Below, piece after piece: positions 304-43,281 of a stretch of 44,602 nucleotides of DNA. The stretch is taken from assembly GCA_049691175.1 (NCBI GenBank), contig JBAVNP010000113.1, positions 1-44,602 on the forward strand, in the 5' to 3' direction. Both the position numbers and the translations under genes were made by a program. This DNA is from Sedimentisphaerales bacterium. GTDB lineage: Bacteria > Planctomycetota > Phycisphaerae > Sedimentisphaerales > UBA12454. The notes beneath the pieces were generated by a model. That model saw only the letters and a list, made by a program, of their open reading frames with translations, searched no databases and had not been told where the DNA came from. Every line of letters begins with the position of its first letter. Positions within the stretch are counted from its first letter, which is position 1.

Positions 304-1245
304 ATGACAACACAAAAAAAGGAAAAACCAAAACATCTCGGCAGGGGACTGGAGTCTCTAATAGGTCCTATAACAAATATCGGACAAGAAAACTCCGATA
401 TATCTTTGGGCGACAATTTATCTAACTTCCCTGTTGACAAGGAGTTACAGGATAATTTTATTGAAATAAGTCTAAACGATATAAACCCAAATCCGTATCA
501 GCCACGGCAGAACTGGGAAGTCCTGCAGCTTAAAGAGCTTTCGGACTCCATCAGAGAAAACGGTGTTATTCAGCCAATAGTAGTCAGGCGGAAGGGCGGC
601 AAATTTGAGATTGTGGCAGGGGAGAGAAGATTCAGAGCCGCTCAAATGGCGGAAATCGGCAAGATACCGGCAATGGTCAGAACGGCAAATGATTCTGAAA
701 TGCTGGCCCTGGCTTTGGTGGAAAATATTCACAGAGCGGATTTGAATCCGATTGAGAAGGCAAAAGCCTATCAGAATTTTATGGAGACTTTCAGCCTGAC
801 ACAGGAACAGGCTGCGCAAAAGTTAGGCCAGGACCGCTCGGTTGTCGCGAATTATGTTCGGCTGCTCAATCTCCCCGCTGAAGTAAAACAAATGCTTGTC
901 GATGGTTCTTTGGATATGGGACACGCAAGGGCGATACTCGCTCTGCCGACAGATGATTTGAGAAAGAGACTTGCCAATCGCGCACTGGCAGGGCGGCTGA
1001 GTGTCCGTGAAGTTGAGAGACTTGTAAGACTCGCATTGAGTGAAAAAGACGAGACGAAACAAAAGCAGATAGTTGAAAAGCCTGCGCATATAAGAGACCT
1101 CGAAGAAAAAATCAGGAGCAGACTCGGCACAAAAGTAAATATACAGGCAAGGAAAAACGGCCAGCGCGGCAGAATAGTTATTGAATTCTATTCACTCGAT
1201 GAATTCGACAGCATCGCTGAAAAGCTCGGCGTTAATTCAGATTAA
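304..1245 (+). CDS. parB: ParB/Spo0J chromosome partitioning protein
   Basis: The N-terminal KHLGRGLESLI box, the GERRFRAA arginine patch (CTP-binding motif) and the HTH region SLTQEQAAQKLGQDRSVVANYVRLL are all present. AAGGAG lies 8 nt before the ATG at 304. The ORF-track start at 190 (GTG) runs through parS and is rejected. Confidence 0.93.
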   Translation: MTTQKKEKPKHLGRGLESLIGPITNIGQENSDISLGDNLSNFPVDKELQDNFIEISLNDINPNPYQPRQNWEVLQLKELSDSIRENGVIQPIVVRRKGGKFEIVAGERRFRAAQMAEIGKIPAMVRTANDSEMLALALVENIHRADLNPIEKAKAYQNFMETFSLTQEQAAQKLGQDRSVVANYVRLLNLPAEVKQMLVDGSLDMGHARAILALPTDDLRKRLANRALAGRLSVREVERLVRLALSEKDETKQKQIVEKPAHIRDLEEKIRSRLGTKVNIQARKNGQRGRIVIEFYSLDEFDSIAEKLGVNSD

Positions 1246-21788: not shown

Positions 21789-21901
21789 ATAATTATTCAC
21801 TTGTCGAGTATATTTTCCCTTATATAAGATTAAATGTCAAATGAATAATTTCCCCTAAGTGCTTGTTGTCAAAGAAGTTATTCACATGATTTTGCCGGTT
21901 A

Positions 21902-27264: not shown

Positions 27265-28104
27265 CTATATACCTAATTTAATTCTTGCCCGACGTATAAT
27301 ACCCTGCGGTAGCAGAGTGGCGGCAGAACGGATTATTACATTTCGCAGAAACTGCCACTTATTTATAAAACCGATTTTCAGAAATTCTCTTTGCAGCTTT
27401 ATCTGTAGAGATGCTCTTTTAAATCCGCTTCGTCTTTTCAGAAGTCCTTTTTCCCATCGGTGATAATAAAGAACCTCTCCGATAGTTGCCATTTTGCTGC
27501 CGTTTAAAAGCATTTTTGCCCAAAGGAGGTAATCCTCAAGACCAGCGAAGGGGGTATAATTCCCCGCCTTCAGAACAGCTTCTTTTCTGAACATTGCCGC
27601 GGGATGATTCATACAAAATCTGAACCGGAATTGCTTTTCTATCTGTTCGTGCAGGAGGGGGCCACGCCGGACGAACAGCAGCTTTTTGACATTTTTGTCA
27701 AAGGCCGCGGCAAAACAGCTCACCACGTCAATATCAGGATTGTTTTTCAAAAATTTTAATTGTTTCTCAAATCTGTCCGGGCTGCTTATATCATCGGCAT
27801 CCATTCTGGCGACAATATCGAATTCGCAATTCTTAATTCCCTCAGCAAGAGCGACGCCAAGCCCTTTATTTCCCGTAAGATTTACAATTTTTAAAATATT
27901 ACCTGTTTTTTGTTTATATTCGCCGATTAGGTTCTCAAGTTCTGCGCTTACGGGACCATCCTTGACAAGCACAATCTCGTCAGGTTTCACAGTCTGGTTA
28001 AGAATACTGTCGATCGCCGTTTTGAAATAATCAGGCTTATCTTTTTCATAAACGCTCATAAGAACGGAAATTTTAGGCAGGATTTTATCGTCAAGCGAAT
28101 TCAT
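27265..28104 (-). CDS. family 2 glycosyltransferase
   Basis: N-terminal PKISVLMSVYEKDKP and the DxD motif (ARMDADDIS) are typical of the GT-A fold in GT2. Confidence 0.88.
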   Translation of the reverse strand: MNSLDDKILPKISVLMSVYEKDKPDYFKTAIDSILNQTVKPDEIVLVKDGPVSAELENLIGEYKQKTGNILKIVNLTGNKGLGVALAEGIKNCEFDIVARMDADDISSPDRFEKQLKFLKNNPDIDVVSCFAAAFDKNVKKLLFVRRGPLLHEQIEKQFRFRFCMNHPAAMFRKEAVLKAGNYTPFAGLEDYLLWAKMLLNGSKMATIGEVLYYHRWEKGLLKRRSGFKRASLQIKLQREFLKIGFINKWQFLRNVIIRSAATLLPQGIIRRARIKLGI

Positions 28105-28109
28105 ATCTT

Positions 28110-29252
28110 TTATAAAACTCCGACTTTCCTGTAAACTTCGATAAGGTTATCGACCATTTTCTCGCTAGTGAACTCATTTTTCCATTTTTCAAAACCGGCC
28201 GTTCGCATCTGTTCAAAATCCCCGGCCTTGTGCGTAAAAACATATTGCAGACAATCGGCGAAACCTTTGGGGTCTTTGGGTCTGCAGAGAAAACCTGTTT
28301 TTTTATCATCGACAATTTCACTGACGCCGCCGGTGTTGCTTACGATAACTAATTTTCTGAGACTCATAGCTTCGAGTATGCAGTTCGGCACACCTTCGCT
28401 ATCGGATGGCAGAACAACCACCGGTATTCCAACAAGAGCGCTAAAAACATCTTTAGTATAGCCGTAAAATTCGACCTGTTCGGAAACGCCAAGTTCTTTT
28501 GCGAGTTTTTTTATTGCTGATGTATTATCCTGTTTTGTGCTGCCGCCAATAAGTCTGGCCGTAATCATTATGTTTTCCTTTTTCAATATGGCGAGCGCCT
28601 TTATAAGACAGTCCTGCCCTTTGCCCTGCATAAAATTTGCTATCATTGCAATTTTTGTCGGCAGAGATTCATTCGGTTTATCGCAGGGTTCATCCGGCGG
28701 GCCGATTGAATCTCTGCCGTTGATTACAACCTCAATTTTTGAAGGGTCAACGCCGGAGTGATTGACAATTTCATCTCTGAGGTATCTGCCGTTTACAATG
28801 TAGAGATCGACATATCTTGATGTCGTCCTGTCGAGCAGATAATAAAGAAATTTTGCTGCTTTGCTGTTTCTTGAGCAGCTGATGTATGTCTGTGCACGCA
28901 GTATATGGCGGATATCGGGTCTTTTTTTTCGGACGGCTTTGCCTATTAGGCTTTCGCGGAAAAGATGAGTCTGGATGAACGCAACGTCTCGCCCTTTCAG
29001 AGCCTGTGCAATTTTTTTTGCTGCTGAAAGTATTTTTGCTGCTGAAAGTATTTTTGCCCTGCTCATCGGGACAGACAGCACCTCAAAGCCGCGGGCGGCA
29101 AAAATCTGTGCAAAAGCTGACCGGATATCCGATGTTATCAGGACAGGCTTGAAGCATCCTCGGGAAAACAACTTCTCCGCAAGCCTTACAATCTGCCATT
29201 CGACACCACCCATATTCTCCGTACTTTGTCTTATAAAAATTATCTCTTTCAT
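28110..29252 (-). CDS. family 4 (GT-B, GT1-type domain) glycosyltransferase
   Basis: The C-terminal E-x7-E region is LPSDSEGVPNCILEAMS. 380 aa. It contains an in-frame 18-bp tandem duplication. Confidence 0.88.
   Translation of the reverse strand: MKEIIFIRQSTENMGGVEWQIVRLAEKLFSRGCFKPVLITSDIRSAFAQIFAARGFEVLSVPMSRAKILSAAKILSAAKKIAQALKGRDVAFIQTHLFRESLIGKAVRKKRPDIRHILRAQTYISCSRNSKAAKFLYYLLDRTTSRYVDLYIVNGRYLRDEIVNHSGVDPSKIEVVINGRDSIGPPDEPCDKPNESLPTKIAMIANFMQGKGQDCLIKALAILKKENIMITARLIGGSTKQDNTSAIKKLAKELGVSEQVEFYGYTKDVFSALVGIPVVVLPSDSEGVPNCILEAMSLRKLVIVSNTGGVSEIVDDKKTGFLCRPKDPKGFADCLQYVFTHKAGDFEQMRTAGFEKWKNEFTSEKMVDNLIEVYRKVGVL
29015..29050. repeat. perfect 18-bp tandem duplication inside the GT4 gene
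   Basis: TTTTTGCTGCTGAAAGTA x2, plus a partial third copy (TTTTTGC). In the protein it encodes AKILSA-AKILSA. Confidence 0.9.
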
Positions 29253-29268
29253 CCGTTCTTAAAATCTC

Positions 29269-30762
29269 TTATGTAAAAATAAATAACCGACAGTATAAAT
29301 ATGCATATATGACAAACACTGCATACACGGCTATGATGATTCCGTTCTTCCAGCTTCTTGGCAAGGCCACAAAATCTTCTATTCCTGCGCCTATAATGAT
29401 GAAAGCTATAGGGGCAAGCGAATCTCTGTATCTTAAAACGTTCGCCTCGAGTCCCCCGAGCAGCAAAGCTGAAGTGCTCATTGCGACTATGTAAGGCAGC
29501 AAAAAAGCTAGAAATTCTCTTCGTTTGGTAATTATTACAATTACTCCTACTATCAAAAACGGCAAAGGCAGCCACCACTGACAGATATTGGCCAGCAGCA
29601 TGACTTCATAGAGTTTATTTTCCTCGGTATAAATATGATGCAGGTTTTTGGGCGGCGGATTTAGCAGAGAAAGCGGTATATTAAGCAGTCTAAGCGGTCC
29701 GTGTGATTGATATATTTTATCTATTATCGCAACTTTCTCCGGCACACCTCTTTGTCCCCGTTCTCTAAGTGTGTATTTATCAAACATATCTTCAGCCTTG
29801 TTTGTCAGTTGTTCAAACTGATAAAAAAAGATTATCACGCCAAGAAAAATCAGTGATAGAACAGCGACAGTTTTTCCGGCGGGACTACTTTTATGTCTGA
29901 AACAAATGGCGATTAGAATGGCGGCAATGGACATCAGGCCGTATTCAAGCCGCAGCCATATAAAAATCGGGCCTGCTACTGCAATTGGCAATATCGCCGT
30001 GAACAGCTTTTTGTTTCGAATTATTGCGGCAAAGCTAAAAACCATTAGGCTTACTGCAAAAATTATCCATATTTCCTTGAGAAATTCTACCGAATAAAAT
30101 GCTGTCTGCGGAGCTATAACGCAAAGCAGCGAAACAATTGCCGAAGTATCCTTACTGAAAAGCTCCTCGGCCGCCAGACATACAAACGCAGCACCAAACG
30201 CGCCCAAAAATGCTCCGATAATTCTGGGCCATACAAATTCGTCTCCAAAAAACCTGAATATTCTCGACATCAGAAAACCCGCCCTGTGTGCATTTTTCAT
30301 AAGCTCCGGCGAATTTATAAATTCGCCGATTGTCATATCGCTGTATCTTTGTCCCTGATAGACATAGAAAAATTCGTCCGCCTGAAAGAGCATCGTGTTA
30401 TAATGTCTTATCCATGGAAAGTCTCTTGTTCTGATATCATCAGTCATATATGGCGTCGAATTTTCGAGCGCAAAAACAAGACTCAGCCTCAAAAGCAGGG
30501 CTGTCGCAAATGTAAACGCAGCCAATTGCGAACCTTTTAGCCTGAAGAAAAGGAACCCCGCGACTGCTGTTGCGCAGAATATGATAATGTTAAGAACCAC
30601 ATCGGTAGTGTCGCTTAGTTTAGTTACAAACAGGGGCAGGATTGCGAGCAGGGCAATCGCAGCTAATATTACAAAAATCTGATATTGTGCCGCACTGTTC
30701 CAGAAAGCCGCTATTGCCTTAAAAAATCTGCTTATGATATTGTCATTATGGTTTTTCAGCAT
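29269..30762 (-). CDS. polytopic membrane protein in the EPS locus (GT-C-like glycosyltransferase or polymerase; function uncertain)
   Basis: 497 aa with roughly 12 hydrophobic helices. It overlaps the upstream flippase gene by 7 nt. I recognised no diagnostic motif. Confidence 0.5.
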   Translation of the reverse strand: MLKNHNDNIISRFFKAIAAFWNSAAQYQIFVILAAIALLAILPLFVTKLSDTTDVVLNIIIFCATAVAGFLFFRLKGSQLAAFTFATALLLRLSLVFALENSTPYMTDDIRTRDFPWIRHYNTMLFQADEFFYVYQGQRYSDMTIGEFINSPELMKNAHRAGFLMSRIFRFFGDEFVWPRIIGAFLGAFGAAFVCLAAEELFSKDTSAIVSLLCVIAPQTAFYSVEFLKEIWIIFAVSLMVFSFAAIIRNKKLFTAILPIAVAGPIFIWLRLEYGLMSIAAILIAICFRHKSSPAGKTVAVLSLIFLGVIIFFYQFEQLTNKAEDMFDKYTLRERGQRGVPEKVAIIDKIYQSHGPLRLLNIPLSLLNPPPKNLHHIYTEENKLYEVMLLANICQWWLPLPFLIVGVIVIITKRREFLAFLLPYIVAMSTSALLLGGLEANVLRYRDSLAPIAFIIIGAGIEDFVALPRSWKNGIIIAVYAVFVIYAYLYCRLFIFT

Positions 30763-32069
30763 AACTTCGCCTTTGAAATGTATTTAACGAAAAACAGCAG
30801 CATAAACAGCGAATAAACTGCAAAATACATAACTTGTGCGACAGCCGCTCCGACAAGTCCGACGTTGGCGAGCAACAAATATAATGCCGGCAGAAAGACT
30901 GCAAATGCTGTTATCTCAACCAGCAGGATTTCCCCTGCCTTGCCCATCGCCAGCAATCCGGCAGATAAACAGGAACTAAATCCCCACATAACAAGGGCAA
31001 ACATAAAAATAATCATAACCCTCCAGGCGCCTATGAATTCTTCTCCTGCCGCGATACTCAAAATCCATTTGCCGAAAATTATTGAGACAAGCCATATGAA
31101 CATAGCTATGCTGCCGGTGATGATTGCTGTTCTTGTGGCGACACGTTTCATATCTGAGAATCGTTTTTCAGCCGCCAGGTGAGCCAGTTCAGGATAGACT
31201 GCTTGTGATACCGGCTCGATTAGATGCACCAGAACCCCGGCAAACTGTCTTGCTATTTTGTATATGCCGGTCAATGCCGGCCCCAGAACCGCTCCCGTAA
31301 TCAGGACATCACATTCTCTCGAAGCCTGTCGGACAGACAGGTTCAAATTGGTGCTCAATACGAATTTCCAGATGGTTTTATCTTTTGCGATGGGACTCAA
31401 TTTTGCCTTCAGGAAGTTATCGCCTGTTTCCCTATAAACTTGTCGCCATCCCGCGAATAGCAAAAAGGCGGATTCCACAATACCGGCAACTACCCAGATA
31501 ATTACGAATACAAGCAGGCTGCTGGAAAACTTATACGCAATCGCTGCGAGAATCAGTTTTAAAAATTCAGCGGTTATCATCGCCGCGGAAATAAGCCTGA
31601 ACTTATTAAACAGCCGCAACAGACCAGTGGCAGTGTTCCTTAAATTAAAAAGTATCCAGCAACTGTAAGCGATGGCCGCATAGACCGTCTGTTCCTGCCA
31701 GCCTTTCCATTGGCCGAGTATATAAATAATGACTATTGCTATAAAAGCCCCCGCGGCAGCAGTCGCAGCATCGAGAATCGTGCAAAATTTGGCAAGTGCT
31801 TTAAAATCTTCTTTTCTGTCCTGCTTGAGAAAATCAGCGCCGAATTTTATAACTGCCTGCCAGCACTGGAAGTTCATAAGTCTGTCAATGATGAATACGT
31901 ATGACTGAATAATCGCAAAGACCCCCAGCTTTTCAGCGCCTAACGTTCTGGCGGCAAGAGACAGGCTGATTAGTCTCATCAGCCCGGTAATAACATTGCC
32001 GCTGAAAAGCACTGAAGCGTTTTTGAACATCCTTTTCAAAATAATGTCATTAAATATGGTTTTTAACAT
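30756..32069 (-). CDS. wzx: Wzx-type oligosaccharide flippase (MOP superfamily polysaccharide biosynthesis protein)
   Basis: 437 aa with about 12 TM helices and the N-terminal pattern NASVLFSGNVITGLMRLISLSLAARTLGAEKLGVFA, typical of polysaccharide biosynthesis (Wzx) proteins. The locus context supports the call. Confidence 0.75.
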   Translation of the reverse strand: MLKTIFNDIILKRMFKNASVLFSGNVITGLMRLISLSLAARTLGAEKLGVFAIIQSYVFIIDRLMNFQCWQAVIKFGADFLKQDRKEDFKALAKFCTILDAATAAAGAFIAIVIIYILGQWKGWQEQTVYAAIAYSCWILFNLRNTATGLLRLFNKFRLISAAMITAEFLKLILAAIAYKFSSSLLVFVIIWVVAGIVESAFLLFAGWRQVYRETGDNFLKAKLSPIAKDKTIWKFVLSTNLNLSVRQASRECDVLITGAVLGPALTGIYKIARQFAGVLVHLIEPVSQAVYPELAHLAAEKRFSDMKRVATRTAIITGSIAMFIWLVSIIFGKWILSIAAGEEFIGAWRVMIIFMFALVMWGFSSCLSAGLLAMGKAGEILLVEITAFAVFLPALYLLLANVGLVGAAVAQVMYFAVYSLFMLLFFVKYISKAKLC

Positions 32070-32081
32070 AGCAAAAAGTTC

Positions 32082-33158
32082 TCAGCGATATTTTCTCCGC
32101 AGCGCACGCATAATCTGCCTGACGCCAACGGCGCCGATAACGTGAAAAATCAGAATAATCAGCACAAGTATTGAAACAAACATTATAATGCTTCTCACAC
32201 TTCTGGTCGCCATAAGGAAAACGCCTGCGCCGGTCGCAAGCAGCGTAACTATATAAGCAAGGACCGCTACGTGCCTTTGTTTCAATCCAAGCCTTAAAAG
32301 CCTATGATGAAAATGCTCCGTATCGGGCATATATACCGGTTTTTTGTCGCCGAACCTGTTGAGCATAATAAACAGCGTGTCAAATATCGGTATTCCCATC
32401 GCCAGCAGCGGAAGCGCAAAACCTACAAGCGCCTGTGATTTTGCGGTGCACATAACGGTAGCAGAAGCAATGGTAAACCCGAGAAACAGGCTGCCGCAGT
32501 CTCCCATAAATATTTTCGCGGGATTAAAATTAAAAAACAAAAATCCTGTAAGTCCGCCCGCCAGCGCGAGCATCATTACGCACAATACCGTCTGCCCGAA
32601 ATAAATTGCCAGTGCCGCGATTGTTCCGCACGCTATTGCGCAAATACCGGCCGCAAGGCCGTCCAGCCCGTCAATAAAATTGACCGCATTCGTAACGCCT
32701 ACAATCCACAGAATCGTGAAAGGCCAGGAAAATACACCAAAGTCCAGACTGAACAAATCGGGTACGTTTATCACCTTTATTCTTATTCCGAATGCACAAA
32801 CCAGAATTGCCGCTGCTGTTTGCGTCAGCAGCTTTATCCACGTTTTGACAGGCTTTATGTCGTCAACCAAACCTGTTACAAAAACCAGCGTTGCTCCGCC
32901 GAGCAGCGCCAAAACTTTTGTGCCGAGCTGGCGAAAATTCTCGCCGATTCTATTTGGCAGCAGATACACCGCAGCGATCATACACATCATCGAAATGAAA
33001 ATAGCCAGTCCGCCGATTCTCGCTATCCTGCCGGAGTGCACCTTTCTCGGCCCTGTGCGGTCGAACAGCTCATATCGCACCGCTATCGCAATTATCGCCG
33101 GCGTCAGTATCAGCGACATAACAAGCGAGCCAAGATATGTAAGAATATAAGTCTTCAT
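32082..33158 (-). CDS. MraY/WecA-family polyprenyl-phosphate sugar-1-phosphate transferase (initiating enzyme)
   Basis: Contains the NAVNFIDGLDGLAAG motif plus MGDCGSLFLGF. 358 aa with about 10-11 TM helices. It overlaps the upstream gene by 4 nt. Confidence 0.88.
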   Translation of the reverse strand: MKTYILTYLGSLVMSLILTPAIIAIAVRYELFDRTGPRKVHSGRIARIGGLAIFISMMCMIAAVYLLPNRIGENFRQLGTKVLALLGGATLVFVTGLVDDIKPVKTWIKLLTQTAAAILVCAFGIRIKVINVPDLFSLDFGVFSWPFTILWIVGVTNAVNFIDGLDGLAAGICAIACGTIAALAIYFGQTVLCVMMLALAGGLTGFLFFNFNPAKIFMGDCGSLFLGFTIASATVMCTAKSQALVGFALPLLAMGIPIFDTLFIMLNRFGDKKPVYMPDTEHFHHRLLRLGLKQRHVAVLAYIVTLLATGAGVFLMATRSVRSIIMFVSILVLIILIFHVIGAVGVRQIMRALRRKYR

Positions 33159-35701
33159 TTTATGGTGAGCTCCGTCGAACCATTCTGCTCTATCCCGCTA
33201 ATATTCTGTTTCATCACTTCCGGTTTTATCGAAAGTTCCGCCAGCAGTTTTTCAGCCTGCCGATACTTCGGCTTGAGTTTGAGGCATATTCTCAGTTGTT
33301 TGACGGCCTCGTTTGCCTGTCCGCTTTCGGCCAGAGCCTGCGCAAATTTCAGCCTCAAATCAGCGTTGCCATAGTCCGCCGCAACTGCCGCACCGAGATA
33401 TTCCGCCGCCTTTTGACTATTGTTGTTTTTGCGATAGTAATCGCCGAGCAGAACAAGTTCATCAGCATCAGCGGTGTTGCTTAATGCTTTTTTCTCTGCC
33501 AGCGCGACCAGTTTTGATTGTGCCTGTTCAACCTCGGCGGCAAAATCATCATTCTGCGACAGCATATCAGCAACATATCTTAATCTCCTTGTGTTGTCTG
33601 CAGCAATTTCAACGGCAAGGTCCGCTCGTTTTTCCTGCTCGATATAAATCCGGACAATATCCCTGAAAAATGTTCCGCCCAGACCAACGGATTTGCTGAA
33701 CTTCTCAACAGAGCGTTCAATTTCGCCTGCGCTTATATCCAGACATCCGGCGGCAAAAAGCGTTATTTCGTCGTTGGGTTCAAGCATAAATCCTTTCTTT
33801 ATATTGTCCTCGCCCGCAGGTTCAAGCAGCACAAATTTCTGCAGCTGCCCCAGCAGACAATACACCGGCCCGAATGTCGGACATACAGCTCGTGCCTTTT
33901 TAAGCTCATCCACGATGCCGTAAACTTCCTCGATGGCTTTATTTGTCAGTCCGCCTGTTTCCGAATCCGTCTTGCCGGCTGCGTTCTGCCATTTCCAGAC
34001 ACCCAGCCAATATCTGTATTCAATATTATCCGGCTGTGCCTGCACGGCCTTGGCCGCATAAGAAATCAGTTTCTCAAAATCCCTGTTGTCATTGATTTCG
34101 TTGTTGGTTTTTGATTTATTTTCTATTTTGTGCGCTTCCCGCCACCATCCCTCGGCAATTCTTGCCTTATCCGCGTCGATTAAGGCCCAGCCGTATAAAC
34201 ACGCAAGAACCGCAGATAATATTAATAATACCGGCTTTCCTATTCGGACCGTGTAATCTGTTTGTTCGCCTTTTGAGCGCCTGCCGAGTATTATTATCAA
34301 TCCACAGAAAATCGCGGAGAGCATCGCATTAGCCGGCAGATGCTGACCGAAGTCGGTAATGCTGTGAATGAGAACCGCCATAAGCCCGAATCCAAGACCG
34401 TACACCGCGATACTGACGGAATCTTCCTTGTTCCGGACGGCCCTGATAAAATTTACCGCCACAATGAAAGCGAAAATAAGCATTATTACAAAACCCGCCA
34501 AGCCGGTTTCTTCCAGAAGCTGAGCGTATTCATTTTCGGCATATCTGAACTGAAGGGCCGTATATATGCTTTGAAACATCGGATATATAACCGCATGGCT
34601 TCCCAATCCCGTGCCGAAAAAGATAAACCGTCTTACAGGCTCGGTCATATCTTTCAGCATTTCCAGTCTTGTCTGGTATCCATCGAGCGAACTAAGTGTT
34701 GCCAGTCTTTCATATACCGTATCGAATCCCGTGTATAAAACACAGACAAGTGCCGCCAATGCGATGATAACGACTATCCAGCCGTGCTGCCTGAGAGACT
34801 TTCGGGCCGATAGAAGCAGAACCGTAACGCTCATCGCGATGAGCATTGACAGCATACCGCCTCTTGTGAGCGACGCAAAAACAGCCGCTGCCGATATGCC
34901 TGCCGCTGCGACCAAAAGCCATAACGCCCTTGCCCGGGAAGAATCGAAATAATCGAATACTGTCGCGACGGTAATTTCTCTTTTATCAAATTCACGGTGC
35001 AGTATCAGCAGCGTAAGCGACAAAATAGCTCCAATGGACATATTCATAAACTGCCCGAAGTGGCTGTGATTGACAAACGGCCCGCTGATAGCTTTTGACG
35101 GAGCAGAAACAAACCAGTAAATTTTCCCGTTCCCGGCGACATTCTGTGCTATCGCCAGCAGGGCCGCCGCCGTTCCGATAATTACGATTGCCTTCAAAAG
35201 TCTTTTAATTTGCTCGGTGGATTTAAAAACATTCAGCACGACAACGAAAATCGCTCCAATGCTAAGAATGATTCTTAAGTTATCTTTTGTCCCGCGGGGA
35301 TAAAAACTGAGCGTAAAATTCTCTTTCTGATTTGCTGCCCCCGTGTTTTCTGAGAGAAGTTCATTTTTGAGTGAAACGGTTTGGGGCGAAAACGCTGAAA
35401 CAACCTTCTGCGGCATTGGAATAATGGTAAATATTGCCAGAAGGATAAACGCCGCTATAGGCACATAAGCCCGCGTGAAAACAAAACCTTCAGCGGAAAA
35501 TATCTGCCTGATGAGAAAAATAAAAAACACAACCGCGAAAATGACAACAACAATCTCCTGGCTCAGGTCATGGACTGCACCGAACGCCAGCGGCATAAAA
35601 GCCAGAAGCGTTATCAGTAGAATCTCGATGACTCTGTCTATGAGCCGTATATATTCTGCCGGCAGACCGGCAGTTTTATTTATTCTTCTTCCCGTAACCA
35701 T
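33155..35701 (-). CDS. O-antigen ligase/Wzy-like polymerase domain fused to a C-terminal TPR domain
   Basis: Polytopic N-terminal half with the Wzy_C-type motif YAENEYAQLLEETGLAGFV, and a C-terminal half of about 350 aa of TPR-like helical repeats. The start is set at the ATG at 35701; the track ORF extends to 35932 but that part overlaps the wzc coding region. Confidence 0.75.
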   Translation of the reverse strand: MVTGRRINKTAGLPAEYIRLIDRVIEILLITLLAFMPLAFGAVHDLSQEIVVVIFAVVFFIFLIRQIFSAEGFVFTRAYVPIAAFILLAIFTIIPMPQKVVSAFSPQTVSLKNELLSENTGAANQKENFTLSFYPRGTKDNLRIILSIGAIFVVVLNVFKSTEQIKRLLKAIVIIGTAAALLAIAQNVAGNGKIYWFVSAPSKAISGPFVNHSHFGQFMNMSIGAILSLTLLILHREFDKREITVATVFDYFDSSRARALWLLVAAAGISAAAVFASLTRGGMLSMLIAMSVTVLLLSARKSLRQHGWIVVIIALAALVCVLYTGFDTVYERLATLSSLDGYQTRLEMLKDMTEPVRRFIFFGTGLGSHAVIYPMFQSIYTALQFRYAENEYAQLLEETGLAGFVIMLIFAFIVAVNFIRAVRNKEDSVSIAVYGLGFGLMAVLIHSITDFGQHLPANAMLSAIFCGLIIILGRRSKGEQTDYTVRIGKPVLLILSAVLACLYGWALIDADKARIAEGWWREAHKIENKSKTNNEINDNRDFEKLISYAAKAVQAQPDNIEYRYWLGVWKWQNAAGKTDSETGGLTNKAIEEVYGIVDELKKARAVCPTFGPVYCLLGQLQKFVLLEPAGEDNIKKGFMLEPNDEITLFAAGCLDISAGEIERSVEKFSKSVGLGGTFFRDIVRIYIEQEKRADLAVEIAADNTRRLRYVADMLSQNDDFAAEVEQAQSKLVALAEKKALSNTADADELVLLGDYYRKNNNSQKAAEYLGAAVAADYGNADLRLKFAQALAESGQANEAVKQLRICLKLKPKYRQAEKLLAELSIKPEVMKQNISGIEQNGSTELTIK

Positions 35702-37904
35702 AGCCGTATCCATAGTAACCATAATGAGAATAGTAACCGTATCGGCTATGTCTCGGCGAAACATCGTTGACAATCGCTCCGAGCACGTGCGCTCCGACGC
35801 CGACCAGAGCTTCTTTCGCCTGTTGTGACGCTTTTTTCGTCGATTTCTCCGCACGAAGCACGAGAATGGTCGCGTCGCAGATAGCCGCCAGTATCTGGCT
35901 GTCCGCCACAGGCGTAATCGGCGGCGAATCAATCACTATTCTGTCATAGCGGTGCGTCAATTCCTTCAGCAGGTTTGCAAACGCTTCGCTGTTGAGCAGT
36001 TCGCTGGGGTTCGGCACATCGGGCCCGCTTGTCAGCAGGTCCAGCCCTTCTGTCGGGCAGTGTCTTATCGCCTCGTCGAGGGAAATCTGGCCCGCAAGCA
36101 CGCTCGACAGACCTTTTTCAATTTCGTTTGTGAAGCCGAATACATTATGCTGCATCGGTTTTCTGAAGTCCGCATCGACAACAAGCGTTTTCTGGCCTGC
36201 TTGAGCCATCGCTATGGCAAGGTTGCTTACCATAGTAGTTTTGCCGTCGTTTGGCGCCGGCGAAGTAACCAGAATGGTTCTTGCCTGTCCCTTCGGCACG
36301 CTGAAGAACACTGCGGTTCGTATAGTCCTGTATGCTTCGGCAACAGAGGATTTAGGTTCAAGATGAACCTTTTGTCCGTGGTCGGTAACGGTCTTTTTGC
36401 CCTTTCCGCCCATAGACGGCACGATTCCGAGCACCGGCACAGCCAGAATAGCCGATATTTCATCGGTGCTTCGCAGTCTCCAATCCATCAATTCTCGGAT
36501 TACAGCAATGCCGACTCCGAATAGAATTCCAAGTATGAGACTTACTGCTACAATTTTTGCTCTTTGAGGGCTTGTCGCCAGTTCGGCGGGTCTTGCCGCT
36601 TCGAGTATGTTCACGTTAAGCGCTCCGGTGTCTTCCGAAACGTTCAATTCCTTTATCCGTTCATCGAGTATTTCGCAGAACCTTTTGCTCCGTTCGAGCT
36701 TGGACTCAATAACCGCGTATTCCGTCGCCTTGATATTGAGGTCCTGTGCTGCTTTTTCTTCCTGTTTATATGACGCCATCAGCTCATCTTCTCTCTGTTT
36801 GGCGGTCTGATATTTAATATCCAGAACTTCAATATATGCCTTTGCCTGATTGTTTAACTGCAAGGCAAGCTGTCTTTCGATATCCGCTATTTTGCTTTTC
36901 AGCGCCTTGACCGTCGGATGGTCATCGCTGCACTGCAGAAGCGCGCTTTCAAGCTCGGTTTTTGACCCATCCAATTCGATACGAAGCCGTTTTTCGCTGT
37001 CTCCTTCGAAAAGTCCCTGGCTTATATTTAGCTGAGTCATTGCGTATTGCTTGATTTTCAGCGAGTCTTCGGAAAGTTTCTGCACGGCTTCGAACTCGGC
37101 CTTTGCGTTAATGGCGGAAAGCTGGGCCTCGGCCAAAGAAACGCTGAGGGTTCTAAGCCTCTGGAATACTGCATTTTCATTACTTCTTTCGAACGATACA
37201 ACACCGTATTTCCGCGTAAAATCGAGGAGTTCCTCAAAATTCCCCGCAAGTTCTTTGTCGCGTTCTATCTTTTCCTTTTGCAGAATTTTCAATACTTCTG
37301 AAACGGTGCTTTTCTTCTGACTTGTCTGATAATTTACATAAGATTCAACTATAGCATTGACAATCTGAGCCGCTTCCTCTCTGTAATTCGATTCACAGCT
37401 TACCGCGATTATATCGTCTTTGATTCCGATTTTTACGTCGATGATTTTCTTCAGATAAACCACGAGATTATCAATCTCGCCTACTTCGATTATCGGTTCC
37501 GCCAGCCCGATTCGGTTCTTTATTTCTTCCGCGATAGTCGTGGGTTTTTCCTTGAGTGTTTCCAGCTTCTTTATGTCGCTTCTTTGTGCAACCTGCGCAA
37601 GTATCGGCGTGGACCTAATAAGCTCTCCCTGCGTGTAAAGATAATTCTTTGACTGTGTCATAATCCCTTCGTATTCGGTAATGATTCTGGGGCCTGTCTG
37701 CTCAACATAGAGCCTCGCGGTGCTTGTGTAAGTCGGCACAGCCCTTGAAATATAGAAAATCGCCGCAGCTACAAAGACTACTGTTACAATAAGTATGCTC
37801 AGCTTTCGTCTTTGCAGTGTTACCGCAAAAGTTCTGCCTTTGCCCTGTGTCAACTGCTCGGCAGCGACTGCCTGATTTCCCGTATTTATGTTGTTCTCTG
37901 TCAT
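35676..37904 (-). CDS. wzc: polysaccharide co-polymerase / BY-kinase (Wzc/GumC-like tyrosine autokinase)
   Basis: Wzz-like N-terminal TM helix plus a long coiled-coil periplasmic domain, a second TM helix, then a cytoplasmic P-loop (TSPAPNDGKTTMVSNLA, VVDADFRKP, IVIDSPP) and a Tyr-cluster tail (RYGYYSHYGYYGYGYGYGKKNK). Confidence 0.9.
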   Translation of the reverse strand: MTENNINTGNQAVAAEQLTQGKGRTFAVTLQRRKLSILIVTVVFVAAAIFYISRAVPTYTSTARLYVEQTGPRIITEYEGIMTQSKNYLYTQGELIRSTPILAQVAQRSDIKKLETLKEKPTTIAEEIKNRIGLAEPIIEVGEIDNLVVYLKKIIDVKIGIKDDIIAVSCESNYREEAAQIVNAIVESYVNYQTSQKKSTVSEVLKILQKEKIERDKELAGNFEELLDFTRKYGVVSFERSNENAVFQRLRTLSVSLAEAQLSAINAKAEFEAVQKLSEDSLKIKQYAMTQLNISQGLFEGDSEKRLRIELDGSKTELESALLQCSDDHPTVKALKSKIADIERQLALQLNNQAKAYIEVLDIKYQTAKQREDELMASYKQEEKAAQDLNIKATEYAVIESKLERSKRFCEILDERIKELNVSEDTGALNVNILEAARPAELATSPQRAKIVAVSLILGILFGVGIAVIRELMDWRLRSTDEISAILAVPVLGIVPSMGGKGKKTVTDHGQKVHLEPKSSVAEAYRTIRTAVFFSVPKGQARTILVTSPAPNDGKTTMVSNLAIAMAQAGQKTLVVDADFRKPMQHNVFGFTNEIEKGLSSVLAGQISLDEAIRHCPTEGLDLLTSGPDVPNPSELLNSEAFANLLKELTHRYDRIVIDSPPITPVADSQILAAICDATILVLRAEKSTKKASQQAKEALVGVGAHVLGAIVNDVSPRHSRYGYYSHYGYYGYGYGYGKKNK

Positions 37905-37924
37905 TTTTGTTCTCGCTTGTTTAA

Positions 37925-39637
37925 TTATAGAGCTAAGGGGTTAACATAAACTCCAAAATTGATGCGAAGCATTTGATTCAGAATCACGTTCCTTTTTGTC
38001 CTTGGCGTAACATCGATTGAGATAACATCGCCCGGTTTTATCTTCACGTTACAGCTTTTAGCCATAAAATCTCTGTCGATTCTGAAGACTGCCGAGACAA
38101 TTTCACCCTTTGCATCCTGCCTGTAAACAGTTACGAATCTCGGGTCGGCTATAAGGTCAATGCCGCCTGCGAAGCCGACAGCCTGCATAAGGTTGTATTC
38201 AACATCCGGCGGATATGGAAAAGCGCCCGGCAATTTTGCCAGTCCTATGACGGTAAAGACCGCAGGATTAAGCCTCTTTACTTCGATAAGGTCGCCTTCC
38301 ATCAACGGCACATCAGCAAACGGAATGTTCAGTCCCTTCACAGGCAGAACAATCGCGTCGGTAGTATTGGCTGGCGGCGCTACTGCCGCCGGCTGCTCTT
38401 TGCTCTCGACAGGTTCAATGAATTTTACTTCATTAACGTTATCGACAGGCTCGGACTTAACTTCGTTTTCAACCGGAGTCTCAATGTATTTTTGATTGCT
38501 CGCCTCGGCGGAACTCGCCGGTGCCGGGCAGCCGGGACAGTCCTCTTTCTTTTCGGTATCCTGGCTCTCGGTCTTGCTGTTTTCTAAGTCATTTGCCGCT
38601 TCGAGGAGTTCTGTTTCTTCCGAATCAGGCTGTTTTTCCTGGCTCGCCGCAATCGCGGGTGAAAACTGCTCGGCAAGCTGTGTTATCGCCTGACCGACTA
38701 TGTATGCCTGTTCGGCGCCGATAACGTTCTGCAGCTCTTTTATATATTCAGCTCGCTGGGCCGCATTCTTAATGTCTATTCTTTTTGTATAAAGTATTTC
38801 AGAGCCGCGCTGAACAAGCAGGTTTCCCTGCGTTGCGCCCGGACTTTCAGGCTGAAATGCGAGGTCGGCTGCAAGTGCGGAAAAATCAGTCTCGCTCTTC
38901 GGCGTTTCAGCATCTTTTATATATTTCTCATCGACACCGGTATCAAACTCGGCCAATTGCTTTATTTCATCGGCCCCTTTTATTGTCTGAGGACTGGGGG
39001 TATATTTTCGTTTGGGATTTTTGATTGTGATAATGCTTGCTCCGCCTTCAACAATGCCGCCTGCTTTCATAAGAGCGTTTACCAGCGACATCTCGTTGCT
39101 CTGGAGCTTATAAACGCCCGGCTGAACAACCGCTCCGACTATCGTAACGTTTTTCAGATAATATTCCTTGACGTTGCATACGACACTGGGCAGGCTGACA
39201 AGATACTTGGGATAATATGCGTTAACTATTTCATTTTCTATCTGAGCCAGTGTTTTGCCTATAACATTTATTTGGCCGAGCATCGGCAGTGTGATTGTGC
39301 CTGAATCTGACACTCTGCACAGATACGGCTGGACCTGCTGTTGCTGGTATTGAATGTCTTTATAAAGTTTTGGCGATACTGCCGTCAATATCGTCGGCAT
39401 TTGCAGTTCCAGAACGTCTCCCGCCCCAACTGCATATGTGCCGTAGTTATCCTTGGCGATGAGTAATTGGTCAAGGTCAACTTTTGGAGTGATAGGGCCC
39501 GCCAGTTCAAACGCCTTGACTTGTTCATTGCCAGATAACCGCGGCTCTCCCTGACAGCCGATAAGAAAAACTGCTGCACAGACAAACGCTGCGATTAGCA
39601 GACTCATTTTGGATATACTCTTTATTGTCGTTGCCAT
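37925..39637 (-). CDS. wza: Wza-like polysaccharide export lipoprotein with a large inserted region
   Basis: Lipobox FLIGC. Poly_export-like YAVGAGDVLELQ...GTITLPMLGQINVIGKTLAQIE. Two SLBB-like units (VTIVGAVVQPGVYKL...AGGI and FTVIGLAKLPGAFPY...AGGI) are separated by an insert of about 220 aa whose second half is acidic and low-complexity. GGAGG/AAGGTGA lies before the ATG at 39637. Confidence 0.8.
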   Translation of the reverse strand: MATTIKSISKMSLLIAAFVCAAVFLIGCQGEPRLSGNEQVKAFELAGPITPKVDLDQLLIAKDNYGTYAVGAGDVLELQMPTILTAVSPKLYKDIQYQQQQVQPYLCRVSDSGTITLPMLGQINVIGKTLAQIENEIVNAYYPKYLVSLPSVVCNVKEYYLKNVTIVGAVVQPGVYKLQSNEMSLVNALMKAGGIVEGGASIITIKNPKRKYTPSPQTIKGADEIKQLAEFDTGVDEKYIKDAETPKSETDFSALAADLAFQPESPGATQGNLLVQRGSEILYTKRIDIKNAAQRAEYIKELQNVIGAEQAYIVGQAITQLAEQFSPAIAASQEKQPDSEETELLEAANDLENSKTESQDTEKKEDCPGCPAPASSAEASNQKYIETPVENEVKSEPVDNVNEVKFIEPVESKEQPAAVAPPANTTDAIVLPVKGLNIPFADVPLMEGDLIEVKRLNPAVFTVIGLAKLPGAFPYPPDVEYNLMQAVGFAGGIDLIADPRFVTVYRQDAKGEIVSAVFRIDRDFMAKSCNVKIKPGDVISIDVTPRTKRNVILNQMLRINFGVYVNPLAL

Positions 39638-40226
39638 TTTCACCTTGACCCTCCGAAAAGAAACACAATCACCCGCATAGGGATGATGATTATTTTTCAG
39701 CCCCGAAAACCTGCTTTTCAATTTCAATAACATCGCTGCAGGATAGCCAAAACTATCTTTTTTGACGAAGTTCACTTTCCTAACCCTTTATTAGAAAGAC
39801 CTTACGCCCTGTTCGCAAAGTCGAGAATTAACTGAATATCAGAGATGAATTGCCCAGCTTTCCAGTTTTGCCTATCTTAACACACGAAAGTCAAAAAGTA
39901 AAGCAAATTATGTTGCTATAAGGCTTTACAGTAAAAAAATGTGGATTTTATACTTTAAATCAGCAAATTATAGGACGGTCTTTAAATCTTTTTTCACAGG
40001 GATGAATTAATCCAAAAAGGGTCCGATGAACACGGCCATGACGGTGAAGGGGGTAGCTGTTTTTTAATACTGAAAAATGGGTAAATTTTCGTCCTTTTGT
40101 CCGATAAAGCCTAAAGTTTCTAACCTGCAAAGGCCGAAAATTCCAATATAGGACTTTTTCTCTACGCGCTAAAGCGGCGGTTTTTAGTGCTGAAAATGCG
40201 TTTTAAATTGAATAAAGGATTATCCA

Positions 40227-41492
40227 ATGAGAACGGTGGCTATAATAAATCAGAAAGGCGGCTGCGGAAAAACAACTGTTGCTATAAATCTTGCCAGCGC
40301 CTTGGCGGCTGAAAACAAAAAAACTTTACTCGTTGATATAGACCCGCAGGGACATTGTGCGGTCGGCCTTGCTGTGCCGGAAGAACAGATTGAGCAGAGC
40401 ATCTATGATGTGTTGATAAGCTCCCGCCGCGGCGAGCCTGTCAAGCTCACCGAGATTCTATGGGAAATCGGTGATAACTTCGAGCTTGCGCCGGCAAGTA
40501 TCGACCTGGCCGCGTTTGAACAGCAAACAAATGGCGTTACTGACCGCGAAAACTGCCTCAAAGATGTTCTTAAAACCGTCGAACAGGAATTCGATTATGT
40601 CGTTGTTGATTGTCCTCCCGCCGTAGGAATTTTAACATTCAACGCCATTAGAGCTTCCACCGATGTTGTTGTGCCGGTGGAAACAGGATATTTCTCGCTG
40701 CACGGCTTGAGCAGACAGCTCGATACGCTCAGCGTTCTATGCAAACAATGCTCGCAGCACATAAACGTTATGGTGCTTGCAAGTATGTATGATATCCGAA
40801 CCAAGATGGGCAGAGAAATTCTCGCCGACCTTCGAAAGCACTTCTCCGGCAGAATGTTCCAGACCGTTGTCAATTTCAATACCAAGCTCAAGGAAGCCGC
40901 CAGTCTCGGCCAGCCAATCTGCGAGTATGACCCTGCCAGCAGGGGACACAAGGATTTTCAGGGCCTTGCTCAGGAACTGATAGCGACCGATACGATGGTC
41001 GAGCCGAAACAAGTCGTAAGTGCGCTTCAAAAAACAGAATCCATAACGCAAATTGTTGAGAAAGAGCAGGATAGAAAGGAAATCGTCAAAAACTTCGATG
41101 ATAAACTCGATGCTATCAGTTCATCGGCACAGGAGTTGATGGCAAGCCTTAACGAACCGCAGCCGAAAACCAGGGCAAAGATTGTGCGCGACGTTGACGG
41201 CAGATTAAACGATTTTTACGGCACAAGGCAGTTCGGCGGCGCGGTTAAATTCGTTTCGCTTTATCCGCGAGCCAGAAGTGTTCAGATTGCGGGAGATTTC
41301 AACAACTGGCAGCCGCAGCAGACAACTATGAAACCCGCCCAGGACGGCAAATGGGAGCTTGCTCTGACGCTTGCCCCGGGCAAGTATCGTTATCGTATGG
41401 TTGTTGACGGCCAGTGGCAGCAGGACCCTTACAACGAGCAGGTGGAAATGAATCCCTTCGGTGAATTCAACTCCGTCCTCGAAGTCAAATAA
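40227..41492 (+). CDS. ParA/MinD-family P-loop ATPase fused to a C-terminal CBM48/AMPK-beta-type glycogen-binding domain
   Basis: Deviant Walker A NQKGGCGKTT, then LLVDIDPQGH and DYVVVDCPPA. After a linker of about 80 aa comes VKFVSLYPRARSVQIAGDFNNWQP...GKYRYRMVVDGQWQQDPYN...GEFNSVLEV, which matches the AMPK-beta GBD/CBM48 pattern (GsFNNW, G.h.YkF.VDG.W..DP). Confidence 0.85.
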   Translation: MRTVAIINQKGGCGKTTVAINLASALAAENKKTLLVDIDPQGHCAVGLAVPEEQIEQSIYDVLISSRRGEPVKLTEILWEIGDNFELAPASIDLAAFEQQTNGVTDRENCLKDVLKTVEQEFDYVVVDCPPAVGILTFNAIRASTDVVVPVETGYFSLHGLSRQLDTLSVLCKQCSQHINVMVLASMYDIRTKMGREILADLRKHFSGRMFQTVVNFNTKLKEAASLGQPICEYDPASRGHKDFQGLAQELIATDTMVEPKQVVSALQKTESITQIVEKEQDRKEIVKNFDDKLDAISSSAQELMASLNEPQPKTRAKIVRDVDGRLNDFYGTRQFGGAVKFVSLYPRARSVQIAGDFNNWQPQQTTMKPAQDGKWELALTLAPGKYRYRMVVDGQWQQDPYNEQVEMNPFGEFNSVLEVK

Positions 41493-41499
41493 CCCTCCG

Positions 41500-43212
41500 C
41501 TATGGCTTCCAGATTACCCTGTAAAGCGTCTTTTCGCGCAAGGCAATTGTCTCAAATCCTTCACCGACAGCCGTGGGAAGACAGATAATTCCTTCATACT
41601 TCGGCCCGGCGATGTTATCAACAACAACCATTTGTCTGTCGCCTTTCACCGCTGCATAAGCCGCGTGATTGCCATCGGAACTAAACACGACCGTGCCTTC
41701 CACAATTTCATCGTATGCCGGACCGTTTTGGTCATCAACAACTACCTGCCATTTATTGTCTTTCCGCGCTGCGTATGTTATATGCCTGCTGTCCGCGCTG
41801 AAAACAGGATGGCCCTTTCTGATAGCGTCATATTCCGCCCCAGCGTTGCCATCAACAACGACAATTTGCTTGTAGCCCCTTTTTGCCGCGTATGCTATAT
41901 GCTTGCTGTCAGGACTGAAAACAACCGTGCCATCCAGAACGGCATCGTACTGTGGCCCACCTTGACCGTCGACAATAACCTGCCATTTGCCGCCTTTCCA
42001 CACTGCGTATGCTATATGCTTGCTGTCAGGACTAAAAATGGGAGTGCCTTCTTTAATAGCGTCATATTCCGCCCCGGCATTGCCGTCAATTACAAGCTGC
42101 CACTTGTCGTCGTTTTTGGCCGTATACACCATACGATTGCCGTTTGCGATGAAAACGACAGAGCCTTGTCTGATAATATCATATTCCGGCCCGGCGATGT
42201 TATTATCAACAATAACAATCTGCTTGTAGTTGCTGTTTCTGGCCACATATGCAATGTGGTTACTGTCGGGACTAAAAACAATCGTGCCTTCCGGAATATT
42301 GTCGTAAACCGGTCCGTTCTGGTCGTCAACGATAACCTGCCATTTGTTGTCCTTCTTTACTCTGTATGCGATACGTTCGCCGTTCGGACTGAAGACAGGA
42401 AACTCTTTCCCGATTTCGCTGTACGTCGCTCCCGGCCGACCGTCGATTACTACCTGCCGGTTGATGCCTTTGCGGCCTACATATGCTATGCGTTTGCCGC
42501 CCGGACCAAAGGCAGCAGAACCGATATCGTCATACACCGGCCCGGCTTTGCCATCGACTGCCACCAGCTTTTGAGCGCCCAGCCACACTATATAAGCCAC
42601 GCGATTACTGTCGTCGCTGAATACCGGCGCACTTCTCATTGTTAAAAGGTCGTATTCCGGCCCGGCCTGACCATCGATAACAAGTCTCGCTTTATCATTC
42701 TTCTGCGCTATATACGCTACGCGCTTGCTGTTCGGGCTGAAAGCGACAGTACCGATGTTCTCGTATACCGGACTGGCGACACCGTCGATAACAACCTGTC
42801 TTGTGCTGCCGTTTTGGGCCACGTATGCCAAGTGGTTACTGTCAGGACTAAAAATCAAGAAGTCTTGTCCGATTGTCTCATACACCGCCCCGGCATTGCC
42901 ATCGACAACGACCTGGAATTTTCCATCTTTCCCTGCGATAAGGGCTATGTGCCGCTGGTCGGGGCTGCGGACGATACCAAATATCTGGTCGGGCAGCGTT
43001 CCCAGCGAAACCTCAGCAAAATTGCCGGTCTTGTTTGGTTCACTAAGCTTGGCAGGCCCTTTTGGCTCAACCGAATTCGCCTGCCCTGAGCCTACCTGTG
43101 GTGAGCTTGTCGAACCAGTCGAATGGGCCGAAATCTGCCCATAAGATGCCGCCGCTGCAAGCAAAAATGCCGTTACAACCGCCATACACAGAACACATTT
43201 ACAGCCATTCAT
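41500..43212 (-). CDS. secreted beta-propeller repeat protein (12 PD40/TolB-like repeats)
   Basis: AGGAG lies 7 nt before the ATG at 43212, followed by a signal peptide. It has 12 repeats of about 40 aa: V(V/I)DGxxGPxYDxIxxGxxVFSPDSxHIAYxAxKxxKWQV. Confidence 0.82.
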   Translation of the reverse strand: MNGCKCVLCMAVVTAFLLAAAASYGQISAHSTGSTSSPQVGSGQANSVEPKGPAKLSEPNKTGNFAEVSLGTLPDQIFGIVRSPDQRHIALIAGKDGKFQVVVDGNAGAVYETIGQDFLIFSPDSNHLAYVAQNGSTRQVVIDGVASPVYENIGTVAFSPNSKRVAYIAQKNDKARLVIDGQAGPEYDLLTMRSAPVFSDDSNRVAYIVWLGAQKLVAVDGKAGPVYDDIGSAAFGPGGKRIAYVGRKGINRQVVIDGRPGATYSEIGKEFPVFSPNGERIAYRVKKDNKWQVIVDDQNGPVYDNIPEGTIVFSPDSNHIAYVARNSNYKQIVIVDNNIAGPEYDIIRQGSVVFIANGNRMVYTAKNDDKWQLVIDGNAGAEYDAIKEGTPIFSPDSKHIAYAVWKGGKWQVIVDGQGGPQYDAVLDGTVVFSPDSKHIAYAAKRGYKQIVVVDGNAGAEYDAIRKGHPVFSADSRHITYAARKDNKWQVVVDDQNGPAYDEIVEGTVVFSSDGNHAAYAAVKGDRQMVVVDNIAGPKYEGIICLPTAVGEGFETIALREKTLYRVIWKP

Positions 43213-43281
43213 ATTATGACTCCTTTTTTTATGTATTTGCCAAATCACTGTTCCGCCCGTGCCTCGGAATTGTGCTTACGC

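Follow-up and report, generated by a model that had tools for sequence, protein, structure and literature searches.

The 44,602-nt stretch of DNA analysed here (hereafter the window), contig JBAVNP010000113.1 of a Sedimentisphaerales bacterium (Planctomycetota; assembly GCA_049691175.1), carries a gene encoding a ParA-type ATPase fused to a C-terminal carbohydrate-binding module (CBM) of the CBM48 type, the type also found in the beta subunit of AMP-activated protein kinase (AMPK). This fusion, referred to below as ParA-CBM48, belongs to an old and very large family that spans several phyla, and its ParA domain falls in a paralogous clade that is set apart from chromosomal ParA and has no linkage to parB. 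As the likeliest function of the fusion we put forward nucleoid-based tethering or partitioning of glycogen granules, a proposal that we regard as evenly balanced between right and wrong. A preliminary description of this DNA, made from the letters alone, had recognized a complete ParA/MinD ATPase joined to a C-terminal CBM48/AMPK-beta domain; Pfam matches and the presence of every motif that it quoted bear out this architecture, at a level far above chance.

Domain structure of the fusion protein

The ParA-CBM48 gene occupies positions 40227..41492 of the forward strand and, according to the list of open reading frames (ORFs) and the translation, is a single unbroken ORF of 421 codons plus a stop codon. 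A Shine-Dalgarno-like sequence, AAAGGA, can be read at 40214..40219 (+), 7 nt before the ATG, and the start of the protein, MRT(V/I)A(I/V)INQKGG, lines up with the N-termini of its homologues. The whole protein was modelled with AlphaFold2 using a 47-sequence alignment, with a mean predicted local distance difference test score (pLDDT) of 73. Four parts can be distinguished in the model: a ParA fold (residues ~1-257), presumably flexible stretches of low confidence, a single helix (279-308) and a confidently predicted beta-sandwich (~330-421). Residue conservation was counted in the best 80 fusion loci, which encode full-length fusions, one of them cut by a contig end, and which come from several phyla.

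The ParA/Soj-like ATPase domain (aa 1-256; 40227..40994, +) was identified from Pfam and PDB sequence matches, Foldseek, residue conservation and a tree. Pfam AAA_31 matches residues 1-180 (E 1.4e-48), CbiA matches with E 8e-18 and CBP_BcsQ with E 7e-13, and the motifs KGGCGKT, DIDPQ and VVDCPP are all present. The first of these is the deviant Walker A motif (aa 10-16; 40254..40274, +), with the signature lysine K10 and the P-loop lysine K15. Five of its residues, K10, G11, G12, K15 and T16, do not vary among 59 diverse fusion homologues; D39 of Walker A', which corresponds to D60 of Myxococcus xanthus ParA, is kept in 80/80 fusions, and D128 of Walker B is invariant. Judged by these motifs, the catalytic set of the ATPase is complete.

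Among solved structures, the closest in sequence to the N-terminal domain is M. xanthus ParA (8RAY, E 3e-50), followed by the Soj proteins of Thermus thermophilus (E 2e-42) and Helicobacter pylori (E 2e-39), with McdA reaching only 4e-10. The Foldseek comparison of the AlphaFold2 model gave the same picture: Soj/ParA structures ranked highest, with target-normalised template modelling (TM) scores of 0.81-0.86, and MinD, McdA, BcsQ and plasmid ParAs scored lower. The fusion nevertheless stays below the cut-offs of two curated equivalog models, with 108 bits against 180 for NCBIfam ParA_partition and 89.6 bits against 157.85 for BcsQ (TIGR03371), and no curated NCBIfam model names a ParA-CBM48 protein.

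Two basic residues bear on nucleoid binding. R191, retained in 72/80 fusions, aligns with a conserved arginine of both canonical reference ParAs, at what we take to be the position of the DNA-binding residue R189 of Bacillus subtilis Soj. K220 aligns with R238 of M. xanthus ParA, whose R238E variant has lost DNA binding (PMC12462528); this position is K or R in 74/80 fusions. The alignment thus indicates that the fusion ATPase retains basic residues at the positions by which Soj/ParA proteins bind DNA non-specifically. The pocket in which M. xanthus ParA receives the ParB peptide is formed by six hydrophobic residues. Five of these positions (V133, I135, F138, V170 and C175) are non-polar in the fusion too and the sixth is polar (V116 to Q99); a ParB-like amphipathic peptide might still dock there.

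The C-terminal domain (aa 330-421; 41214..41489, +) is predicted to be an alpha-glucan-binding module of the CBM48/AMPK-beta type on the evidence of Pfam, phmmer, a domain model, Foldseek and conservation. Two Pfam models proposed earlier as a check both match above their cut-offs: AMPK1_CBM on residues 349-421 (E 2.8e-13, 50.3 bits against 26.8) and CBM_48 on residues 341-402 (E 2e-9, 38.1 bits against 22.4). The motifs GDFNNW, GKYRYRMVVDGQWQQDP and GEFNSVLEV are all present. When the last 97 residues were compared with solved structures using phmmer, the best matches were the CBMs of AMPK beta1 and beta2 (E ~4e-8), and then the CBM48 modules of pullulanase and GlgB. Modelled alone, the domain adopts a CBM48 fold with a pLDDT of 91.8, and in Foldseek all of the top 50 PDB matches were CBM48 modules. 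AMPK beta1 (1Z0M/1Z0N) was matched with a TM score of 0.82; isolated AMPK beta CBM chains gave target-normalised TM scores of up to 0.82-0.87, and AMPK heterotrimers root-mean-square deviations down to 1.3 A. Further matches were branching enzymes from Escherichia coli, cyanobacteria, rice and human, several of them with bound maltooligosaccharide or cyclodextrin. Tandem CBM48-like repeats were also encountered: two giant proteins among the best matches to the CBM of the fusion, P0123 (1812 aa) and P0200 (1436 aa), contain 17 and 7 of them, respectively.

The sugar-binding residues, the other point on which the preliminary description had asked for structural scrutiny, are intact. We take W100, K126, W133, L146 and N150 of AMPK beta1 to be the glucan-contact set, on the basis of the structure of its glycogen-binding domain (GBD) with cyclodextrin. 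Their counterparts in the fusion, all on the forward strand, are W361 (41307-41309; W in 80/80), R390 (41394-41396; R or K in 76/80), W397 (41415-41417; W in 80/80), F411 (41457-41459; F or Y in 72/80) and N415 (41469-41471; N or D in 78/80). Conservation of this kind is what selection for sugar binding would be expected to produce. CBM48 modules are specific for alpha-glucans. The translation has no signal peptide and the protein is predicted to be cytoplasmic; the natural ligand would therefore be an intracellular alpha-glucan.

The two domains are joined by a variable linker of ~70 residues (aa 257-329; 40995..41213, +), most of which is modelled as disordered or with low confidence. Its pLDDT is below 50 at residues 256-283 and 309-321, and 50-60 in the helix at 279-308 (41061-41150, +), which contains the clade-conserved residues R283, L294, I297, S298, A301, E303 and L304. 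Across the family the length of the linker ranges from 10 to 224 aa. These features bear on the idea that the CBM is a glycogen sensor, in which case glucan binding would tune the ATPase cycle or lead to sequestration of the protein, and so couple a ParA-controlled process such as segregation, replication control or division-site choice to the carbon reserve. Glycogen sensing has been proposed for AMPK beta, whose CBMs are the closest relatives of the domain in both sequence and structure; a CBM placed on the ATPase suits a regulatory input better than a ratchet, and the gene neighbourhood of the fusions is variable and mostly unrelated to glycogen. However, there is no sign of contact between CBM and ATPase, and a long, variable and apparently disordered linker suits a tether better. 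We consider the sensor quite unlikely.

Family breadth, separation from chromosomal ParA and partner genes

A survey of its distribution showed that the fusion is far from unique. The best 120 matches in a collection of 5.8 billion proteins all have the same ParA-CBM architecture over their full length, at 61-97% identity. They come from metagenome-assembled genomes (MAGs) of Phycisphaerae, Sedimentisphaerales and Anaerohalosphaeraceae, where "AAA family ATPase" and "chromosome partitioning protein" are their only names. When representatives of 50%-identity clusters were searched exhaustively, ~140 of the best 150 clusters were ParA with a C-terminal CBM, down to 36% identity. A seeming subfamily without the CBM (P0124, P0128, P0141, P0144, P0147, P0166 and P0194) was set aside, as its members look like frameshifted or truncated gene calls. 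Signature peptides of the subfamily matched more than 600 stretches in a collection with one genome per species, and at least 576 of these were confirmed.

The best 80 fusions include, within Phycisphaerae, members from Sedimentisphaerales, Tepidisphaerales and Phycisphaerales, and outside this class members from Omnitrophota, Myxococcota, Rokubacteria, Gemmatimonadales, Eisenbacteria, an Anaerolineales-labelled MAG and Ca. Auribacter. The closest relative of the window is a Phycisphaerae MAG from lake sediment, with 97% identity for the fusion protein and 95% for ParB. Targeted literature searches found nothing relevant on a ParA-CBM fusion or on any link between ParA and glycogen. The constituent protein families are known, while their combination, its breadth and the partner protein dealt with below appear to be undescribed.

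To place the ATPase domain, 80 canonical ParAs from many phyla were retrieved as a control set with M. xanthus ParA as the query; Myxococcota and Gemmatimonadota, which also hold fusions, are both represented among them. The canonical ParAs are 45-100% identical to one another, compared with 29-50% to the fusions. When the 160 ParA domains were placed in a neighbour-joining tree, all 80 fusions were separated from all 80 canonical proteins in 50/50 bootstraps. The fusions also have signature residues of their own: H43 in 80/80, in place of the canonical Asn of DPQGN; C13 in 77/80, in place of the canonical Val of KGGVGKT; F156 in 78/80 (GYFSLHG, with EYYALEG as the canonical counterpart); and H159. 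The gene context differs in the same way. A parB gene lies directly downstream in 69/74 testable canonical parA loci, compared with none within 10 kb of the fusion gene in the 80 fusion loci, and no CBM was found in the canonical loci. The description of the family as plain Soj with an additional domain was rejected on the grounds of this clean split and the lack of parB adjacency.

In many lineages the fusion gene is accompanied by a second conserved gene. In 39 of the 58 fusion loci outside the clade to which the window's fusion belongs (the window clade), the fusion gene is directly followed on its own strand by a gene for a partner protein. These loci span Tepidisphaerales, Phycisphaerales, Omnitrophota, Myxococcota, Rokubacteria, Gemmatimonadales and others; examples are L053:11128-12045, L029:11479-13086, L069:11052-11711 and L026:3018-4451, with ~35 further loci. 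The N-terminus of the partner reads LG(R/K)GLE(E/D)(I/V)SHLFLS or a variant of it, for example LGRGLEEISHLFLS, and resembles the ParA-activating peptide of ParB, with which it has the pattern L-x3-L-x2-(L/I) in common. In most members the core of the partner weakly resembles the ParA fold, at a sub-threshold level, and has no Walker A motif; the C-terminal regions are variable and the protein is fast-evolving. Profile and jackhmmer searches found no homologue of the partner in the window, in the fusion loci of the window clade or in 80 ParB loci, and none appeared in ~1.3 Mb of sequence sampled from the clade. The linker helix and the partner gene seemed to avoid each other, but this anti-correlation was dropped, as a divergent helix was found at the same place in other clades.

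It had been suggested that the fusion would let a single polypeptide bridge nucleoid and glycogen, in place of the separate adaptor on which ParA-like ATPases normally depend. The bridge itself is plausible because the DNA-binding basic residues of ParA are retained, as are the glucan-contact residues; replacement of the adaptor, on the other hand, fails for the family as a whole, given the partner genes. Their conservation could also be taken as a sign that the C-terminal domain now serves to bind a protein, for instance the partner, and that the cargo is not a glucan. Some CBM48-like domains do not bind sugar, which speaks for such a change of role, but the five glucan-contact positions are strongly conserved across phyla, unexpectedly if sugar binding had been lost, and the window clade retains the CBM (58-92% identity) with no partner gene nearby. 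In our judgement a protein-binding role is very unlikely.

A link to alpha-glucans is provided by the gene neighbourhood in seven Omnitrophota-type loci (L059, L071, L073, L074, L076, L077 and L080), where a GH57 enzyme (Pfam E 3e-67, with GH57 proteins as the best PDB matches) is encoded two genes upstream of the fusion on the same strand. The GH57 family acts on alpha-glucans, and this adjacency is an independent genomic link of the fusion family to alpha-glucan metabolism. The string of genes shared by these loci consists of a porin-like gene (Alginate_exp, in several loci), the GH57 gene, a gene for a 190-aa membrane-anchored protein and the ParA-CBM gene, followed in some loci by a gene for a DUF4870-like small membrane protein, and by one for a 136-aa protein with a very Lys-rich N-terminus, which could be a McdB-like partner.

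Orphan parB and proposed function

The window also carries a monocistronic parB (304..1245, +; Pfam ParB_N, HTH_ParB and ParB_C). The earlier observation that no parA adjoins it holds: bases 1-303 before the gene are non-coding, and the downstream neighbour is a GH31 hydrolase gene. Upstream of parB are two parS-like sites, AGTTTCACGTGGAACA at 66-81 and the perfect palindrome TGTTTCACGTGAAACA at 191-206. In the closest relative, a divergent glyA lies upstream of parB. The orphan state is general, as no ParA-like ORF was found within 6 kb of parB in any of 80 related loci, 74 of which contain at least one parS-like site and usually two. The N-terminal peptide of the window's ParB, KPKHLGRGLESLLG (KPKHLGRGLESLLGPI), is the ParA-activating peptide and is nearly unchanged across the orphan ParBs (KPKHLGRGLxSLLGPI), with the G(R/K)GL core present in 77 of the 80 related proteins. 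The retention of this peptide speaks for the orphan ParB still having a ParA partner of some kind. The peptide is a candidate activator, in trans, of the fusion ATPase in the window clade.

The fusion of the window clade may accordingly be considered as the working partner of this ParB, that is, as the chromosomal Soj of a ParABS system for origin segregation, in which the CBM would be an accessory serving localisation or regulation; such a role would be compatible with one in granule positioning. The monocistronic parB with its parS sites and activating peptide is one part of the case. The nearest solved structures to the fusion are Soj/ParA proteins, it is precisely the window clade that has no dedicated downstream partner (0 of 22 loci), the peptide of the partners found elsewhere follows the ParB pattern, and the fusion gene is ori-proximal together with parB, mnmE and yidC. 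On the other side stand the paralogous position of the ParA domain, the sub-threshold score with ParA_partition and the polar residue in the ParB pocket. Nor does the fusion gene keep a constant distance from parB (~39-46 kb, ~330 kb and ~850 kb in three genomes; 39 kb in the window), and a canonical parA may lie elsewhere in the genome. On balance this role, the main alternative to the one in glycogen partitioning, is possible but doubtful. The suggestion in the preliminary description that the fusion might be the chromosomal Soj is thus weakened by the separate clade, its own signatures and the lack of parB linkage; the protein may still have a second role with ParB.

We return to the role in glycogen partitioning. 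ATP-bound dimers of the fusion would sit on the nucleoid, and the two CBMs of each dimer, carried on long tethers, would grip cytoplasmic glycogen (alpha-glucan) particles. The granules would thereby be spread over the nucleoid and inherited with the chromosome, rather than drifting to the poles. ATP hydrolysis would release the tether and give rise to ParA-type dynamics. In most lineages the trigger of hydrolysis would be the dedicated partner encoded by the next gene, through its ParB-like LGRGL...SHLFLS peptide; in the window clade it would be either an unlinked partner or the peptide of ParB.

Several observations weigh against this proposal. The CBM is on the ATPase and not on its activator, which is a misfit with the usual layout of a diffusion ratchet, and the fusion may not be a motor but a static tether or a sensor. 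The partner gene adjoins the fusion in none of the window-clade loci. No glycogen-metabolism genes were found within the window, and a Pfam census of 134 conserved neighbours in the other lineages revealed no enrichment of glycogen genes beyond GH57.

The two roles could also be combined: glycogen would be a true ParA cargo and, in Sedimentisphaerales-type Phycisphaerae, the fusion would in addition have replaced the canonical Soj and be driven by the orphan ParB. This we hold to be unlikely. Were it the case, one nucleoid-bound ATPase would partition the carbon store along with the origin, or would let glycogen status control segregation or replication.

Surroundings of the gene and comparison with known systems

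The window is ori-proximal and carries parS/parB, mnmE, yidC and dnaK. The ParA-CBM48 gene is apparently monocistronic because the exopolysaccharide (EPS) cluster upstream of it is divergent and the gene downstream is convergent. The latter encodes a protein with very regular PD40 beta-propeller repeats (41500-43248, -), and its stop codon is 7 nt from that of the ParA-CBM48 gene. A 394-aa ORF at 41461-42645 (+) is a shadow of these repeats on the other strand and is not a gene.

The EPS cluster (27265-39775, -) is of the Wzx/Wzy-dependent type and encodes a Wza-like export protein, a Wzc-like tyrosine kinase, Wzy, a WecA-like glycosyltransferase (GT4), Wzx, and GT1 and GT2 glycosyltransferases. 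The Wza-like protein (616 aa) has a long low-complexity insert, Wzy is fused to TPR repeats (925 aa), and a 497-aa protein without a Pfam match is also encoded. This arrangement raises the question of whether the fusion serves the cluster by placing a polysaccharide secretion machine in the manner of BcsQ. The divergent cluster is kept in a relative whose fusion is 85% identical, and Pfam CBP_BcsQ matches the protein. The arrangement is, however, gone at 66% identity and absent in other clades, the BcsQ equivalog score is below its cut-off, there are no bcs genes in the window, and CBM48 modules have their specificity for alpha-glucans. A role in EPS secretion therefore seems most improbable, and the adjacency is treated as local synteny because it is kept in near relatives only.

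Other features of the window were recorded in passing. A c-di-AMP riboswitch (21655-21795, -; Rfam RF00379, 83.8 bits, E 3.5e-18) lies upstream of a gene for a TrkH-family cation transporter (20234-21586, -). A gene for a pyruvoyl-dependent arginine decarboxylase adjoins an arginase-family (agmatinase-like) gene (14947-16413, -), which suggests a putrescine pathway pair. Two genes for extracytoplasmic function (ECF) sigma factors occur in succession (4010-7884, +), the first followed by a gene for a zf-HC2 anti-sigma protein and the second by one for a 420-aa protein without a Pfam match.

Bacteria generally rely on ParA/MinD ATPases to position large objects, among them chromosomes, plasmids and carboxysomes as well as chemoreceptor arrays and division sites. 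Glycogen is the commonest bacterial carbon store, and to our knowledge no active positioning system for it has been described. In E. coli, glycogen is inherited asymmetrically (PMC4836754). If the proposed role is correct, a conserved multi-phylum ATPase with an intact glycogen-binding module would represent both a new class of cargo and a new mode of cargo recognition. The family also brings with it a partner protein that appears undescribed and whose peptide resembles the activating one of ParB, and the window clade raises the question of which ParA serves the orphan ParB.

With the chromosomal ParA/Soj proteins of B. subtilis, T. thermophilus (1WCV/2BEK), H. pylori (6IUB) and M. xanthus (8RAY), the fusion has in common the fold and size of the ATPase domain, the signature lysine of the deviant Walker A motif, the catalytic Asp residues and the basic positions for non-specific DNA binding. 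It differs from them in belonging to a separate clade with KGGCGKT, DPQGH and GYFSLHG instead of KGGVGKT, DPQGN and EYYALEG, in never being part of a parB operon, and in its C-terminal extension of ~165 aa ending in the CBM48 domain.

In concept, the closest likeness is to McdA/McdB, PpfA/ParC and PomZ, in which a nucleoid-bound ParA-type ATPase distributes a large non-DNA cargo in the cytoplasm; moreover, many fusion lineages have a comparable two-gene unit of an ATPase and a partner with an activating N-terminal peptide. Unlike in these systems, the fusion carries its cargo-recognition domain on the ATPase itself, whether or not the partner also contributes to recognition. It resembles McdA weakly in sequence, and in the window clade no partner is adjacent, the place of the downstream gene being taken by the convergent PD40-repeat gene.

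The C-terminal domain resembles the GBD of AMPK beta and the CBM48 of branching enzymes in its beta-sandwich fold and in the same five sugar-contact positions, but the protein that it forms part of is a ParA ATPase, not a kinase scaffold or a GH13 enzyme, and K126 and L146 are replaced by Arg and by Phe or Tyr, respectively. BcsQ, like the fusion, is a member of the ParA/MinD family associated with a polysaccharide and is matched through Pfam CBP_BcsQ, whereas the fusion falls short of the equivalog cut-off, has no bcs genes in its window and carries a CBM for alpha-glucan, not cellulose. A functional analogue of the proposed role is PhaM of Ralstonia eutropha, which binds both the polyhydroxybutyrate storage granule and the nucleoid, so that daughter cells share the granules. 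PhaM is nevertheless an unrelated protein without ATPase activity, and it acts on a different storage polymer.

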